Source of the DNA: Mobula hypostoma
Taxonomy: Eukaryota
DNA: 64,000 nt
Direction of reading: 5' to 3'
Assembly: GCF_963921235.1 (NCBI RefSeq)
Contig: NC_086108.1
Coordinates: forward strand, 71,984,001-72,048,000
Below the pieces are notes generated by a model. The model saw only the letters and a program-made list of their open reading frames with translations. It had not been told where the DNA came from and made no database searches. Made by a program: the position numbers and the translations under genes. This document shows, piece by piece, positions 21,780-54,242 of this stretch. How positions within the stretch are numbered: position 1 is the stretch's first letter; the number at the start of each line of letters is the position of its first letter.

Positions 21780-22878
21780 GAGACTTGGTAGACTGGGCTC
21801 AAAATTGCTTTGTCCTTGGGAGACAGCGGGCACCTGTGGAAGGGTGCTATTCTGCTGGGAGCTTTGTGAGTAGTGGCATTCCGCTGATGGAAATTTCAGA
21901 TACAGGCCAATTTGCAAGGTCTGAAACAAAAGGAAAGCACACAATGAAAGGTAGGACCCTTCAGAGAATTGAAGTATGGAAGGATTTTGGGAACAAGTCC
22001 ACCATTTCCTGAAAGTGGCACACAACTAGATAGAGGTGGTAAAGAAGGCATCTTTGTCAGTTGTGCTGTCAAGGATAAAATTTGGGAATTCATGTCACAG
22101 CTGCATAAAACTGGTTAGGCCACATTTGGAGCATTGTGTGCAATGTTTGTCACCACATTACACGAAGGATGTGGAGGTGTTGGAAGGGATGTAGATGACG
22201 TTAACCAGGGTGTTGCCTGAATGAGATAGTGTTAACTCTAAGGAGAGTTTGGACAAGGTTAGATCGTTTTTTCAGGGACTGAGGGATGACCTGATTATGA
22301 GGGTGTGGTAAACCATATATATGTTGTAACTGGGTTAACTGTCTGGACACGTCCCACTGCTGACTGCCCCTGTGGCTCCTCCCACAGATTCATGAATAAA
22401 TGTGTTTTTCCTTGCCCCTCCCCCTCAGTCCGGGGGAAGACACTCACCATGGAGGTCGTATTGTACAGCGAATAAAAGACTTTCGGTATTCTATCTAACC
22501 TCAGTCTTTTGAGTTATTGAAGGTGCTTCAGAGGGGCATAGAAAGGGCAGAGTTTTTTTTTCCTGAAGTGGAAATGTCAAATATTAGAGGGCATAGCTTT
22601 AAGGTCAGAGAAGGAAAGTTCAAAGGAGATTTTCAAGAGAAGTTCTTTCACACGGAGAAGTGTAAGTGCCTGGAATGTCCGCGCAGGAGAAGTGGTGGAA
22701 GCAGATAAGACTGAAGTATTCAAAAGGCATTTAAATAGGCACAGGAACAGGCAGGGAATGGAAGGGTATGGACCATTTACTGGCAGGTGGGATTAGTTTA
22801 AACTGAGATCACATACCTCACAGACTTTGTGGGCCAAAAAGCCTGTTCCTGTGCTGTGATATTCTAAGTTCTATGTTC
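21780..22878 (+). mobile_element. Old degraded CR1 LINE, interrupted by a Gypsy solo LTR
   Basis: Remnants of LVRPHLEHCVQ and RGHSFKVREGKFKG, with a TTCTAAGTTCTATG tail. Confidence 0.8.
22304..22530 (+). mobile_element. Solo LTR of the Gypsy family found at 49432
   Basis: TGTGGTAAACC...GGTGCTTCA, colinear with the LTRs at 49432 and 53675. Perfect 5-bp TSD GAGGG at 22299-22303 and 22531-22535. Confidence 0.95.
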
Positions 22879-42323: not shown

Positions 42324-44588
42324 CAAACAACAGGAATTCTGCAGATGCTGGAAATTCAAGCAACACACATCAAAGTTGCTGGTGAACGCAGCAGGCCAAG
42401 CAGCATCTATAGGAAGAGGCGCAGTAGATGTTTCAGGCCGAGACCCTTCGTCAGGACTAACTGAAGGAAGAGTGAGTAAGGAATTTGAAAGCTGGAGGGG
42501 GAGGGGGAGATGCAAAATGATAGGAGAAGACAGGAGGGGGAGGGATAGAGCTGAGAGCTGGACAGGTGATAGGCAAAAGGGGATACGAGAGGATCATGGG
42601 ATAGGAGGTCCGGGAAGAAAGATGGGGGGGGGGGTTGACCCAGAGGATGGGCAAGGGGTATATTCAGAGGGACAGAGGGAGAAAAAGGAGAGTGAGAGAA
42701 AGAATGTGTGCATAAAAATGAGTAACAGATGGGGTACGAGGGGGAGGTGGGGCCTAGTGAAAGTTAGAGAAGTCAATGTTCATGCCATCAGGTTGGAGGC
42801 TACCCAGACGGAATATAAGGTGTTGTTCCTCCAACCTGAGTGTGGCTTCATCTTTACAGTAGAGGAGGCCGTGGATAGACATGTCAGAATGGGAATGGGA
42901 TGTGGAATTAAAATGTGTGGCCACTGGGAGATCCTGCTTTCTCTGGTGGACAGAGCGTAGATGTTCAGCAAAGCGGTCTCCCAGTCTGCGTCGGGTCTCA
43001 CCAATATATAAAAGGCCACATCGGGAGCACCGGACGCAGTATATCACCCCAGTCGACTCACAGGTGAAGTGATGCCTCACCTGGAAGGACTGTTTGGGGC
43101 CCTGAATGGTGGTAAGGGAGGAAGTGTAAGGGCATGTGTAGCACTTGTTCCGCTTACACGGATAAGTGCCAGGAGGGAGATCAGTGGGGAGGGATGGGGG
43201 GGACGAATGGACAAGGGAGTTGTGTAGGGAGCGATCCCTGCGGAATGCAGAGAGAGGGGGGGAGGGAAAGATGTGCTTAGTGGTGGGATCCCGTTGGAGG
43301 TGGCGGAAGTTACGGAGAATAATATGTTGGACCCGGAGGCTGGTGGGGTGGTAGGTGAGGACCAGGGGAACCCTATTCCTAGTGGGGTGGTGGGAGGATG
43401 GAGTAAGAGCAGATGTACGTGAAATGGGGGAGATGCGTTTAAGAGCAGAGTTGATAGTGGAGGAAGGGAAGCCCCTTTCTTTAAAAAATGAAGACATCTC
43501 CCTCGTCCTAGAATGAAAAGCCTCATCCTGAGAGCAGATGCGGCGGAGACGGAGGAATTGCGAGAAGGGGGATGGCGTTTTTGCAAGAGACAGGGTGAGA
43601 AGAGGATAGTCCAACATATTATTCTCCGTAACTTCCGCCACCTCCAACGGGATCCCACCACTAAGCACATCTTTCCCTCCCCCCCTCTCTCTGCATTCCG
43701 CAGGGATCGCTCCCTACACAACTCCCTTGTCCATTCGTCCCCCCCATCCCTCTCCACTGATCTCCCTCCTGGCACTTATCCGTGTAAGCGGAACAAGTGC
43801 TACACATGCCCTTACACTTCCTCCCTTACCACCATTCAGGGCCCCAAACAGTCCTTCCAGGTAAGGCATCACTTCACCTGTGAGTCGACTGGCGTGATAT
43901 ACTGCGTCCGGTGCTCCCGATGTGGCCTTTTATATATTGGTGAGACCCGACGCAGACTGGGAGACCGCTTTGCTGAACATCTACGCTCTGTCCGCCAGAG
44001 AAAGCAGGATCTCCCAGTGGCCACACATTTTAATTCCACATCCCATTCCCATTCTGACATGTCTATCCACGGCCTCCTCTACTGTAAAGATGAAGCCACA
44101 CTCAGGTTGGAGGAACAACACCTTATATTCCGTCTGGGTAGCCTCCAACCTGATGGCATGAACATTGACTTCTCTAACTTCCGCTAGGCCCCACCTCCCC
44201 CTCGTACCCCAGCTGTTACTCATTTTTATGCACACATTCTTTCTCTCACTCTCCTTTTTCTCCCTCTGTCCCTCTGAATATACCTCTTGCCCATCCTCTG
44301 GGTCACCCCCCGCCCCCCGTCTTTCTTCCCGGACCTCCTGTCCCATGATCCTCTCGTATCCCCTTTTGCCTATCACCTGTCCAGCTCTCGGCTCTATCCC
44401 TCCCCCTCCTGTCTTCTCCTATCATTTTGCATCTCCCCCTCCCCCTCCCCCTCCAGCTTTCAAATCCCTTACTCACTCTTCCTTCAGTTAGTCCTGACGA
44501 AGGGTCTCGGCCTGAAACGTCGACTGTGCCTCTTCCTATAGATGCTGCTTGGCCTGCTGCGTTCACCAGCAACTTTGATGTGTGTTGC
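42324..44588. mobile_element. Penelope-like element (Neptune-type), head-to-head inverted duplication
   Basis: The minus arm (42324-43613) carries RT thumb SQFLRLRRICS plus GIY-YIG. The plus arm (43609-44588) carries GIY-YIG. TSD TAGGATAGAAATAG at 42310-42323 and 44589-44602. Confidence 0.97.
44490..44525 (+). ncRNA. Minimal type I hammerhead ribozyme in the PLE pLTR
   Basis: AGTC-CTGACGA-AGGgtctcggCCT-GAAA-CGTC^GACT. Stem I is AGTC/GACT, the core is intact and the predicted cleavage is after 44521. Confidence 0.8.
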
Positions 44589-48800: not shown

Positions 48801-49686
48801 TTTATATAATTTTAAAGAATTTTCTTGTACCACACAGCTTTTTGCTTTCAGAAAATAATCATAAAGTGCTACAAGACAACAACAGGAGCTTTGGCCACCA
48901 TGTCATTTTGACTGTTCTGTCCACTTGCACTATTCCCATTCGCCCCCATTAGGCCCATGTCCTTCCATGCCTTACCTGCTTAAATGCCTGTCTTAAGTGT
49001 CTCTAAAATGCTGTGATTGTAACTGACTACATAATCTCCTCTTGCAGCAAGTTTCAGATATCAACCACTCTCTGCATTTAAAAAAAAACAAATTCCATTT
49101 ACAATTCCTTCCTCTCACTTAAATCTATGTCCTCTTGTTTTTTTGATTCTGACTGTCTACCCAATCTACCACTCTTATAATTTTGCATATCCTGATCAGG
49201 TTAGCCTCTAATCTACTTTTGCTCCAAGGGAATCAAACCCAGCCTAATCAATCCCACCATGAACCAGGCAACATCCTAGTGAACCTCCTATGCATTCAGT
49301 CCAGTGCAACTATATCCTTCCAACTGGGTGACGACCAGAACTGCACCCTGTGTACCTCGAGCTTGCTCTAGACACTGTTCTGAAAAATTGCATTTTAAGT
49401 CCCAATTTTTATATTCTATGCCCTGACCCATTGTGGTAAACCATGTATATATGTTGTAACTCGGTTACCTGTCTGGACACACCCCTCTGCTGACTGCCCC
49501 TGTGGCTCCTCCCACAGAGTCCTGTATAAAGGTGTTCGCCTTGCCCCTCCCCCTCAGTCCGGGGGCAGACACTCACTGTGGAGGTCGTATTGTACAACGA
49601 ATAAAAGCCTTTCAGTATTTTACCAAACCTCAGTCTTTTGGAGTAATTGAAGGTGCTTCAATTTTATTCGCTGTATGTTTTAAAAC

Positions 49687-52600
49687 ATGGAACAGGCCCT
49701 GAGACCAGAAAAATTAGACCTCAATCCGCAAACACCTGAAGCTGGAAACGCTTTCGAACTCTGGCTGGCCTGCTTCAAAGCGTATCTAGAGGAGATTAAA
49801 GCGACCGACCCCGTAGCGAAGTGCAGAGTTCTACTCTCCAGGGTCAGTCCACGGGTCTATTCGCTGATCAGAGACCAGCCGAACTACGACGGCGCAATGA
49901 ACGCACTCAAAAGACAATACCTGCGGCCGATAAACAGCGTCTATGCTCGGCACCGTTTAGCGACACGGCAACAAGGCCCGGGGAATCGAGTGCTGAGTTC
50001 GTCCAGGCCCTACGGTCGCTCGTGCGAGCCTGCAATTGCCAGGAGCTGACGGCGGCGCAGCATGCAGAACTCCTAGTGAGGGACGCCTTCGTCACGGGGA
50101 CCAGGTCAGTGTACGTGCGCCAGCGGCTGCTGGAAAAAGCCGATCTTACCCTAAATTCGGCGATGGAGCTGGCTAATACGTTGGAGGCCGCTCTGCATAA
50201 CTCCGAGGCTCTCCAGGCACGCGATCCCCCGATGGCCTCGTGGGTGCCGCAGACCCCGCAACCCGCCGGCGAATCGACCTCGGCTGCAGCCAGTCATGAG
50301 TCCGCGAAGTGCTACTTCTGCGGACTGGAGAAGCACCCCTGGAAACGCTGCCTGGCCCGACAAGCTACCTGCTCCAGCTGCAGAAAGAAGGGCCACCTCG
50401 CCAAGGTCTGTAAGTCAAAACTGCAAGCGGGATCGAGCAGCGCTGCGTGCGAGACGTGGGGGTCGCCATCTTCCCTGCACACTGCCACCACATGCGAGAC
50501 ATGGGGGCCGCCATCTTCCCTGCACGCCACCACCACATGCGAGACATGGGGGCGGCCATCTTGGTCGGCGCCACCTCCCACCGCCTACGACCAACAGGTG
50601 CTCACGGGGCACCCCACCACGCCGGACCAAGACAGCGACCCCACCCTGGCTTCTGTGACCCTCCACCAAAGCGCTCCCCACCAGCTCGCAAGGTCAATGA
50701 CAGACATCCTGGTGGAGGGGCACAGGACAAGCTGCCTGTTTGACACAGGCAGCACGGAGAGTTTTATCCACCCGGCCACGGTGCAGCATTGTGGACTCAT
50801 GGTACGACGGTAAGTTGGAGGGTCACCATGGCCTCCAGGTCGCATACAACAGACATCCGGGGGGGTTGTGTAGTGATACTAGTGGTGCAGGGCACAGAAT
50901 ATCGGGACTTTATGTTACTGGTCTTGCCTCAACTGTGTGCCCCTGTGCTGTTGGGGTTGGACTTCCAGAGCCACCTGAAAAGCGTGACAATGAAGTATGA
51001 TGGGCCCCTCCCGCCAATTTCTGTCATAAATCCCCTGTTTTGTAGAGATATGTCACGTACCCCGCTACTGACCACACACACACACCAACGCGCGCATCCC
51101 ACCCAACATCATGCCAACTGCCAGACTACCGACACCACTTGCGGCCTCTCCACCCTCAGGATCCCTCCCCCACCGCTGTTCGCCAACCTGACCCCCAACT
51201 GTAAACATGTGGCAACTAAAAGCAGGAGGTACAGCGCGGGGGACAGAGCTTTCATTAAGTCGGAGGTGCAGCGGCTGCTCAGGGAGGGGGTCATTGAGGC
51301 AAGCACAAGTCCTTGGAGGGCGCAGGTGGTGGTTGTTCGGAACGGGGAGAAAAATAGGATGGTCGTGGACTATAGCCAGACCATCAATAGGTTCACGCAG
51401 CTCGACGCGTACCCTCTACCCCGCATCGCGGATATGGTCAATCAGATAGCAGGGTACAAGGGGTACTCGACCATAGACCTAAAATCCACTTACCATCAGC
51501 TTCCCATCCGCCAGGAGGACCGCCCTTACACTGCCTTCGAGGCGGACGGCAGGCTTTATCAATTCCTGCGCGTCCCCTTTGGTGTCACGAATGGTGTATC
51601 TGTCTTCCAGAGGGCAATGGACTGGATGGTGGACCAGTGCCAACTGAAGGCCACGTTCCCATATCTGGATAACATCACCATCTGCGGTCACGACCAGCAG
51701 GATCACGACAACAACCTTCAAAAATTTCTCCAAGGGGCCAAATCTTTCAACCTCGCCTATAACAAGGACAAGTGTGTATTTGGGACCACCCGACTTGCTA
51801 TCCTTGGGTGTGTCGTGGAGAATGGAGTCATTGGCCCTGACCCCGACCGTAAGCGCCCCTTGTTGGAACTCCCTCTTCCCAATACCCTCACAGCCCTCAA
51901 AAGGTGCCTGGGCTTCTTTTCATATTACGCCCGATGGGTCTCTAACTATGCAGACAAGGCCCGCCCCCTGGTCGAGTCCATCACATTCCCCCTCTCACCC
52001 GAGGCCCGCGCGGCCTTCAGCCGCATAAAAGGGGACATTGCCAAAGCAGCAATGCATGCGGTGGATGAGGCCATTCCCTTCCAAGTAGAGAGTGACGCCT
52101 CCGACTTTGCGCTGGCTGCTACCCTCAACCAGGCAGGAAGACCAGTGGCGTTCTTCTCCCATACCCTTCAAGGCCCTGAAATTCGGGACTCCACGTTGGA
52201 GAAAGAGGCCCAGGCCATAGTGGAAGCTATAAGGCACTGGAGGCACTATCTTGCCGGTAAAAGGTTCACCCTGCTAACTGACCAGCGCTCAGTCGCATTC
52301 ATGTTTAATAATCAGCAGCGGAGCAAAATCAAAAATGATAAAATTCTGAGGTGGAGAATCGGACTCTCCACCTACAACTATGACATCATGTACAGGCCTG
52401 GGAAGCTCAACGAACCCTCCAATGCCCTATCCCGGGGAACGTGCGCCAGCGCGCAGATCGACCAGATATACGCCCTACATGTAGACCTTTGCCACCAGGG
52501 AGTCACCCGGCTTTTCCACTTCGTGAAAGCCCGGAACCTGCCTTACTCCCTTGAGGAGATCAGGACGATGACCAGGGACTGCCAAGTCTGCGCAGAGTGC

Positions 52601-53605
52601 AAACCGCACTTCTACCGACCCGAAAAGGCACCACTCATCAAGGCCACCCGTCCCTTTGAGCGACTGAGTGTTGACTTTAAGGACCCCCTTCCCTCCTCCG
52701 ACCGCAATGTGTACTTTCTTAACGTAATTGACGAGTACTCGCGGTTCCCCTTCGCCATCCCCTGCCCCGACACCACTACCACGTCAGTTATAAAAGCCCT
52801 GCGCAAGCTCTTCACTCCGTTCGGATACCCATGCTATATCCACAGTGACAGAGGGTCCTCGTTTATGAGTGACGAGCTGCGCCAATATCTACTGGCTAGG
52901 GGAATTGCAACCAGTAGGATCACGAGCTATAATCCCCGGGGGAATGGACAGGTAGAGAAGGAGAATGGCACGGTGTGGAAAGCCACACTCTTAACCCTCA
53001 GGTCAAAGGGACTGCTGGTCTCCCGCTGGCAGGAGGTCCTTCCCGAGGCACTCCACTCCATCCGCTCCCTGTTATGCACAGCCACCAATGCCACCCCTCA
53101 TGAGCGGCTCTTTTCTTTTCCCAGAAAATCGACCACTGGAACCACCCTACCATCTTGGCTGACGTCCCCGGGGCCAGTGCTGCTCCGGAAACATGCGAGG
53201 AGCAATAAACACTCCCCGATCGTCGAGAGGGTTCACTTACTTCATGCGAACCCCCAGTATGCCTACGTGGTTTTACCTGATGGGCGGGAGGACACGGTCT
53301 CCATCCGCGACCTGGCGCCCGCAGGAGATCCGGGCCCCTACCCTGAACACTCCGTGGTGACTAATGACCCTGTACCCACCAATGTATGTACCTACGAGAC
53401 ACCGTGCAGCTCAAACCCTATACAGACACCACACGACACTCCCATACCGGGCGCGACGCACACGCATGAGGGATTACCGACGCCTAACGTGCTGGCACCT
53501 GAAGTCAGGCCGGAGCCAGCACAACCGCCATCACCGGTGCAATCACCGCCAGTGCTACGTAGATCACAGCGACGGACTCGACTGCCTGATAGACTTGACC
53601 CGTAA
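49687..53605 (+). pseudogene. Gypsy gag-pol polyprotein, probably one ORF broken by two -1 frameshifts (about 49972 and 50808)
   Basis: Two CX2CX4HX4C knuckles, protease LFDTGS, RT PFG..YLDN, RNase H DASD/EKE/TDQ, and integrase H-H-C-C with D-D-E (VDFK, HSDRG, GQVE). No chromodomain was recognised. Confidence 0.93.
50448..50562 (+). repeat. 45-bp tandem repeat (about 2.5 copies) in the gag-PR linker
   Basis: Units start at 50448, 50493 and 50538 and encode CETWG.PSSLH..TT. Confidence 0.95.
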
Positions 53606-54242
53606 ATATACTTATTGTAAATATTGTCAGTCACTTCACCCCGCGGGACTCTTTTTAAAAAAAGGAGGGGTGAATGTGGTAAACCATGTATATATGTTGT
53701 AACTCGGTTGCCTGTCTGGACACACCTCTCTGCTGACTGCCCCTGTGGCTCCTCCCACAGAGTCCTGTATAAAGGTGTTCGCCTTGCCCCTCCCCCTCAG
53801 TCCAGGGGCAGACACTCACTGTGGAGATCGTATTGTACAGCGAATAAAAGCCTTTCAGTATTTTACCAAACCTCAGTCTTTTGGAGTAATTGAAGGTGCT
53901 TCACCTATGCAGGCAAGAATGCCAATTTAGTATCTTCACTCTATCTACCTGTGTTGAGGCTTTCAGGGAAATGTAGTCTTGAATTTTGAGGTTCCTCTGT
54001 TCATCAGCATTCCACAGTGCCCTACTAATTACTGAGTACGTCCTACCTGTATTTGACTTCCCAACATGCGTCACTTTGTACTTATCAGGATTAAATTCCT
54101 TTTGCCAATGCTCTGCTCAACTTTCCATCCGATCTATAACCTGAAGTAGCCTTAGACAACATTCCTCAATTTCCATCAGGCCACACACTTTCTTGTCATC
54201 CACAAACTTACTGACCATACTTAATTGTACCTCTATATATAA

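Follow-up and report, generated by a model that had tools for sequence, protein, structure and literature searches.

A Ty3/Gypsy element of Mobula hypostoma with a primer-binding site complementary to its own LTR, and its palindromic by-product insertions

A Ty3/Gypsy retrotransposon of 4472 nt lies at 49432-53903, on the + strand, of the 64,000-nucleotide stretch of DNA analysed here (the window). Its primer-binding site (PBS) complements a segment of its own LTR. We suggest that this site is the complement of 15-16 nt of the R region and that the element is probably primed by its own RNA after a cut predicted to fall between 49606 and 49607. That self-priming takes place in some form we regard as very likely. 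Self-priming has been demonstrated experimentally mainly in the Tf elements of fission yeast, and it is usually linked to chromoviruses. A self-primed clade outside the chromoviruses, with members in cartilaginous fishes and in many invertebrate animals, would mean that self-priming is common and would explain entries recorded as "no PBS found". The new part of this analysis is a set of integrated by-products in which the PBS has folded back on the LTR. They also provide a method, since primer length, plus-strand end and RNA start become readable from a genome assembly alone.

Structure and classification of the element

Features are on the + strand unless stated. The 5' LTR (49432-49660, 229 nt, TG...CA) and the 3' LTR (53675-53903) differ at 5 of 229 positions, and the target duplication of the element, CCCAT/CCTAT, matches at 4 of 5. 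A solo LTR of the same family (22304-22530) is flanked by an exact 5-bp duplication (GAGGG/GAGGG). Within the 5' LTR, a TATAAA (49525-49530) that is retained in most copies stands 31 nt upstream of the adenine of an Inr-like TCAGTC (49554-49559), and the RNA 5' end is predicted at 49556-49557. The putative primer segment in R follows at 49592-49606 and includes an AATAAA (49600-49605). Its equivalents are 22463-22477 in the solo LTR and 53835-53849 in the 3' LTR, which has no PBS downstream. According to RNA folds, a second helix (49607-49656, with 49607-49619 paired with 49642-49656) abuts the primer segment, and it is this geometry that places the predicted nick between 49606 and 49607. The LTR is followed by a one-nucleotide spacer (A, 49661), the PBS (49662-49676), gag with the start of the protease (49687-50813, two Cys-His motifs), a pol frame encoding RT (YLDN), RNase H and integrase (50744-53605), and the polypurine tract (PPT, 53658-53674). 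In the window copy gag is split over two frames, 49684-50049 and 49800-50813, with a stop right after the protease motif.

The Pfam order protease-RT-RNase H-integrase is that of Ty3/Gypsy, the closest solved structure is the Ty3 RT (E 3e-45), and TG...CA LTRs, a PPT and a target duplication are further Ty3/Gypsy traits that are present. The sequence-only reading had described a non-chromodomain family with a YLDN-type RT, and this description holds: YLDN is present, and no Pfam Chromo match was found in the pol frame or among the domains listed for 120 relatives. The closest named proteins come from rays and sharks (77-92% identity). Behind them stands a large set at 57-66%, with corals, nematodes and an insect among its members. 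In many relatives a single protein of ~1150-1300 aa carries protease, RT, RNase H and integrase. The viral contigs searched yielded no relative. Our tree of the relatives is a quick version, without bootstrap or named reference elements. Three loci tried as a tRNA-type outgroup (L106, L108 and L110) were rejected, as their TGG probably belongs to an ATG context, no LTR lies upstream and their rows nest inside the clade. The two Cys-His motifs are a feature that we take to be Mag-like. By description, the anatomy as a whole is also Mag-like.

Several other features were observed. The spacer between gag and protease (~50445-50560) holds a ~45-nt unit three times in tandem, with CETWG three times in frame. 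A TTACCT(G) motif in U3 (49463-49469) recurs in the LTRs of L033, L037, L043 and L046; its opposite strand resembles a splice donor, and it is partly lost within the window element's family. Elsewhere in the window, amid related repeats, 42624-43332 and 43609-44317 form an inverted repeat with 709-nt arms that are 99% complementary and separated by 276 nt. Four sequencing runs compared with the window consisted of contigs and showed no RNA ends. Within 50798-53124, contigs from one study (runs X3 and X6) join ~50800 to 53124 with 3-11 added letters, and these joins perhaps represent a deleted, non-autonomous form without most of pol. Gypsy elements of this animal clade also occur in contigs filed as bacterial genomes (L111-L118), most likely through host contamination.

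The PBS and its partner in the LTR

The spacer adenine is followed by TTTTATTCGCTGTA (49662-49675), which is the exact reverse complement of 53836-53849 in the 3' LTR and of 22464-22477 in the solo LTR. The 5' LTR counterpart (49593-49606) has one substitution relative to the complement of TTTTATTCGCTGTA. Shuffling the LTR 3000 times with doublets preserved gave complements of no more than 7 nt, as against the 14 nt observed. Nucleotide 15 of the PBS is C in 24 of the 30 closest copies, giving a match of 15, and T in the window copy, giving a G-U pair; the self-complement of 14-16 nt spans AATAAA. When RNA is folded from 49556, an unmutated copy has z = -4.19 and none of 200 shuffles is equally stable, while the window copy with its substitution has z = -1.71. 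The TGG of a tRNA PBS is absent after the LTR, and an Rfam search of 49380-49800 at E up to 10 gave no match to a tRNA or any other family. What the sequence-only reading had noticed here, i.e., the 14-nt exact complement in the 3' and solo LTRs, the single substitution in the 5' copy, the absence of TGG and the AATAAA in the paired segment, was all found again. The TATAAA lies 68 nt before 49593, where that reading had given about 65. The second helix, the likely start site at 49556 and the by-products go beyond that reading.

Covariation across the clade

Among 88 related loci examined, 21 have a true LTR pair around the RT, and their RTs are 49-62% identical to that of the element. In all 21, the LTR end is followed by a spacer of 1-2 nt and then by a 10-19 nt complement of the element's own LTR, in a few cases with one mismatch, the complemented segment lying 35-77 nt upstream. 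Five further repeat pairs were excluded as internal duplications or simple repeats. Enough upstream DNA is available at 63 loci. The signature is present in 41 of them and missing from the other 22, all of which lack a recognisable LTR pair. The signature also appears in 5 of the remaining 25 loci, within circularly permuted contigs. Same-size controls taken from pol gave complements of at most 10.

In 25 families, represented by one copy each and related to one another, so that the counts are not independent draws, the PBS pairs with its own LTR over 11-19 bp, and pairing of at least 11 between families occurs in 2 of 600 combinations. There are 24 different last-11-mers among the 25. Thus each family's PBS matches its own LTR with letters that differ from family to family, and the covariation among relatives that fold-back priming would entail is observed. 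The 3' boundary of the paired segment is fixed: A stands at its last three positions in 25, 24 and 25 of 25 families, and it is followed by a purine (25/25), a C at +2 (25/25) and another C (23/25). The boundary is directly followed by a second helix of at least 4 pairs in 20 of 25 families, where 6.4 would be expected. Going upstream, pairing is kept at -12, -13, -14 and -15 in 24, 23, 20 and 17 families. AG is found 11 nt before the boundary in 18/25 and G at -10 in 24/25, a pattern that would fit a Tf1-like RNA start at that point. We also asked whether this AG, at -11/-10, could be a 3' splice site and rejected that as a general rule, since 7/25 families and an older subfamily have no AG and the pairing crosses the site.

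In 27 of 29 copies of this older subfamily, which lies in the same genome as the window element, the pairs at -11 and -15 are both compensated; at -11 the subfamily carries T rather than A. In a single copy from another organism (L038), both LTRs and the PBS carry a compensated change. At the level of copies the test at the CpG pair is flat (8 compensated against 6 not; in both LTRs, 3/7 against 2/10) and confounded by CpG decay. Five copies (L163, L165, L172, L177 and L192 of G000) combine PBS nt 15 of the older subfamily with the LTR segment of the younger, and this mismatch may mark recombinants or an intermediate stage. At another locus (L250, G000:C2:232477200-232482300) an older-subfamily LTR directly follows the 3' LTR as a two-LTR tandem.

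Palindromic by-product insertions

We searched this genome for LTR ends with a PBS that continues as inverted LTR. Such fold-back junctions occur 34 times exactly, and a longer pattern that allowed as many as 3 mismatches found 57. With 444 exact normal PBS junctions, the fold-back form makes up ~7% of the exact ones. We read each of the 59 distinct places. The commonest form consists of the LTR, the A, the PBS and an inverted U3 that ends exactly at the first LTR base. Both outer ends are recognisable in 29, of which 23 have exact 5-bp target duplications, 5 match at 4/5 and 1 is a mismatch. A fold-back in the chromosome after insertion would have copied the left flank in inverted form. Because the flanks are direct 5-bp duplications, we rejected this source and infer that the mini-insertions were made as cDNA and then integrated. 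By-products of the older subfamily were found at 14 places; of the 5 with both ends, 2 have exact duplications and 1 matches at 4/5. Together with the covariation across the clade, these integrated by-products lend strong support to tRNA-independent fold-back priming, which the sequence-only reading had proposed.

Seven by-products extend through U3 and on into the PPT and reversed pol, and therefore a 3' LTR served as their template. Four loci read as an LTR into which a short inverted segment of U5 has been inserted at the duplex boundary; two of these have exact duplications. The PBS itself determines where this junction falls, so it does not prove the cut site independently. In 26 palindromes the arms diverge at 50/1300 positions in R and 143/3266 in U3 (p = 0.46), a result under which fold-back and two templates are indistinguishable. 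Shortened left arms near the predicted nick were not used as evidence: of 21 loci, 7 start at LTR positions 171-190, not pinned to 176. One locus (L345, G000:C5:89782947-89785967) has a different fold-back point, as it exits gag ~70 nt after the LTR and then enters inverted U3. The by-products are also a source of perfect 175-bp inverted repeats, which repeat libraries would list among solo LTRs or MITEs.

Length of the primer and start of the RNA

Jumps were sought with patterns that leave the normal sequence at chosen positions, so the counts refer to the exits probed. Exits inside the PBS gave 41 matches with 18 jumps, and exits beyond the PBS gave 8 matches with 0 jumps. Seven of the 18 jumps land on a 9-nt PBS look-alike in gag (49858-49866), and 6 land on a look-alike of the PBS end (6/7) in the protease, on the opposite strand (50781-50787), which with L028 is the target of 7 PBS-anchored inversions. 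The rest are 3 jumps to other internal sites after nt 15-16, 1 jump after nt 11 and 1 short deletion. PBS letters are retained to nt 15, beyond a mismatch with the landing site, in L028, L361, L362 and L353. At both look-alikes some copies have the landing-site letters and others the PBS letters through nt 15, as if a mispaired end had been repaired either way; the copied end was therefore at least 15 nt long. The jump copies may not all be independent, and those at the gag look-alike may descend from a single event or have arisen as ordinary microhomology deletions. As read from these junctions, the primer is likely to comprise 15 nt or more and to be cut out of the interior of R, unlike that of Tf1, which is the first 11 nt. 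The productive primer could be shorter than the by-products imply, because looking for read-through products favours long primers.

An RNA start at 49556 was predicted from TATA and Inr before the by-products were examined. Three by-products (L265, L281 and L318) stop at the equivalents of 49557, 49556 and 49557, and their continuations are all different. L265 and L318 have an extra A untemplated by the LTR, L318 is integrated with an exact target duplication, and two of the three loci also show a short GC microhomology. Other early exits lie at LTR positions 142, 143, 156-157 and 157, and four more fall within the first 20 nt. For three exits to coincide in a 3-nt window, the probability is ~3e-4 with 7 exits and ~1e-3 with 11. 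L279 and L340 were discarded as early exits, being a SINE insertion and an internal deletion, respectively. The 14 by-products of the older subfamily include no stop at the start-site equivalent. These run-off ends suggest that packaged RNAs may begin ~50 nt before the boundary.

Proposed mechanism and alternatives

We propose that transcription would begin near 49556 and that the R segment would pair with the PBS, stacking on the second helix. A nick at 49606/49607, made by the element's own RNase H on the analogy of Tf1, would free a 5' fragment of ~50 nt whose last 15-16 nt remain paired, and from this primer RT would proceed through the spacer and U5. Copying of the primer by the plus strand would follow, usually for ~15-16 nt and sometimes as far as the RNA 5' end. 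Because the primer copy is complementary to the LTR itself, the PBS end of the plus strand could sometimes anneal to the LTR instead of the PBS, which would give rise to the palindromic mini-insertions.

Of the other mechanisms that we weighed, a strictly Tf1-type one is unlikely. Here the productive RNA would start at the duplex (~49591-49596), its first 11-16 nt would be the primer, and RNAs from 49556 would lead to by-products only. The AG at -11/-10 in 18/25 families, the G at -10 in 24/25 and the T-rich run upstream are initiator-like; the shortest duplex (L091) has 11 bp, and Tf1 uses its first 11 bases (PMC7175516); and most plus-strand exits fall at PBS nt 15-16. However, pairing goes on past this length, from -12 to -15 (24, 23, 20 and 17 of 25), and is compensated at -15, while an exit after nt 11 is the junction in only 1 of the 10 matches that probe it. 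The T at -11 in the older subfamily, the canonical TATA/Inr spacing and the three run-offs that indicate 49556 also argue against it. A still smaller probability is given to a primer that comes from the 3'-LTR copy of the segment, at an RNA 3' end made by cutting or trimming at the same AAA, and that pairs in cis or on a partner RNA. This 3' source had been raised in the sequence-only reading. The seven by-products that pass from the PBS junction through U3 and the PPT into reversed pol look as if the primer had continued into the 3' part of the genome, the 3' copy is without a local partner, and the four loci with inverted U5 at the boundary fit as well. Yet annealing of the plus-strand PBS end to the 3' LTR would yield identical products. 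The 5' copy is 55 nt from the PBS and the fold of an unmutated copy is stable (z = -4.2); the local fold should win. In addition, the second helix of the window family extends past the expected poly(A) site, and run-offs at 49556 require a 5' end.

Less probable still is a duplex that mainly masks the poly(A) signal of the 5' LTR, with priming by another route. Such masking has a precedent in HIV-1, where a hairpin hides the 5' poly(A) signal, and AATAAA or ATTAAA lies within the duplex in 15/25 families. In the other 10, however, the hexamer is not in the duplex, and 3 of these carry it downstream, unpaired by the PBS. Masking calls for neither a one-nucleotide spacer nor a 3' boundary that is fixed and directed at the end of the LTR, and the by-products show the plus strand copying the duplex sequence as it would a primer. 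Thus the dual role suggested in the sequence-only reading stands for priming and is weakened for masking, and the hiding of the 5' AATAAA is likely a side benefit in some families rather than a conserved function. We give almost no credence to a tRNA fragment or other host RNA of the same sequence as primer. Half-tRNA primers are known in Copia lineages (PMC6317226), but TGG is missing, 24 different 11-mers in 25 families each match their own LTR, and Rfam (49380-49800, E up to 10) gave no match. Priming by the element's own 5' RNA, cut inside R, remains the reading that we prefer.

Comparison with known systems

Repbase curators have reportedly commented on self-primed animal Gypsy families. 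Our literature search, which covered sources other than subscription journals and Repbase Reports, found neither self-priming in a non-chromovirus animal Gypsy clade nor integrated PBS fold-backs or palindromic mini-elements. In Tf1, the RNA's initial 11 bases pair with the PBS, RNase H cuts between bases 11 and 12, and plus-strand strong-stop DNA terminates in a copy of the primer (PMC7175516). Tj1 of S. japonicus and Tf2, which like Tf1 belongs to Schizosaccharomyces pombe, are described as like Tf1 (PMC4600332, PMC5341516). For Tcn1 and the TAR elements of plants, self-priming has been predicted (PMC6317226). In Tf1 cDNA, a single-stranded PBS end directs mis-insertion at PBS homologies (PMC11042837). 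As in Tf1, Tf2, Tj1, sushi and Tcn1, the PBS of the present element complements its own LTR, and release of the primer by a cut is what we infer for it.

There are also differences. In contrast to Tf1, the duplex in this clade has 11-19 bp and ends at a fixed AAA, often that of a poly(A) hexamer, and in the window family it apparently lies ~36-51 nt inside the RNA and not at the 5' end. The Sushi set has a mean LTR of 572 (PMC3601003), whereas the LTR here is 229 nt and no Chromo match was found. Though the element appears to work like Tf1, we do not file it with Tf1 and sushi, as no chromodomain was found and the indirect evidence in the window family leans against a 5'-terminal primer, which the -11/-10 letters of other families favour. 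By description its anatomy resembles that of the Mag lineage of Ty3/Gypsy (A, B and C clades in GyDB), which has LTRs of 200-300 nt, a length of 4-5 kb and a fused gag-pol (PMC11117352); the 229-nt LTR, the 4472 nt and the 5-bp duplications agree with this. Mosquito Mag elements also make 5-bp duplications, but they use tRNA-Leu, -Ser or -Arg primers (PMC3286476), for which the element has no PBS. Plant TAR Copia and fungal GalEa resemble it in that they are described as having no tRNA PBS and self-priming was predicted from their sequence, but these belong to the Copia superfamily, and the GalEa hairpin is within the leader with no LTR partner (PMC6317226, PMC5445492).

It is possible, at slightly under an even chance in our judgement, that a large clade of animal Gypsy elements not belonging to the chromoviruses arrived at self-priming independently, with a chemistry unlike that of Tf1, i.e., an internal nick. 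If so, a nick at the stacked junction of two helices beside a poly(A) hexamer would free a long capped primer, and the cost would be steady integration of palindromic mini-elements, in which the primer-cDNA junction, the end of the plus strand and the start of the RNA are preserved in the host genome.
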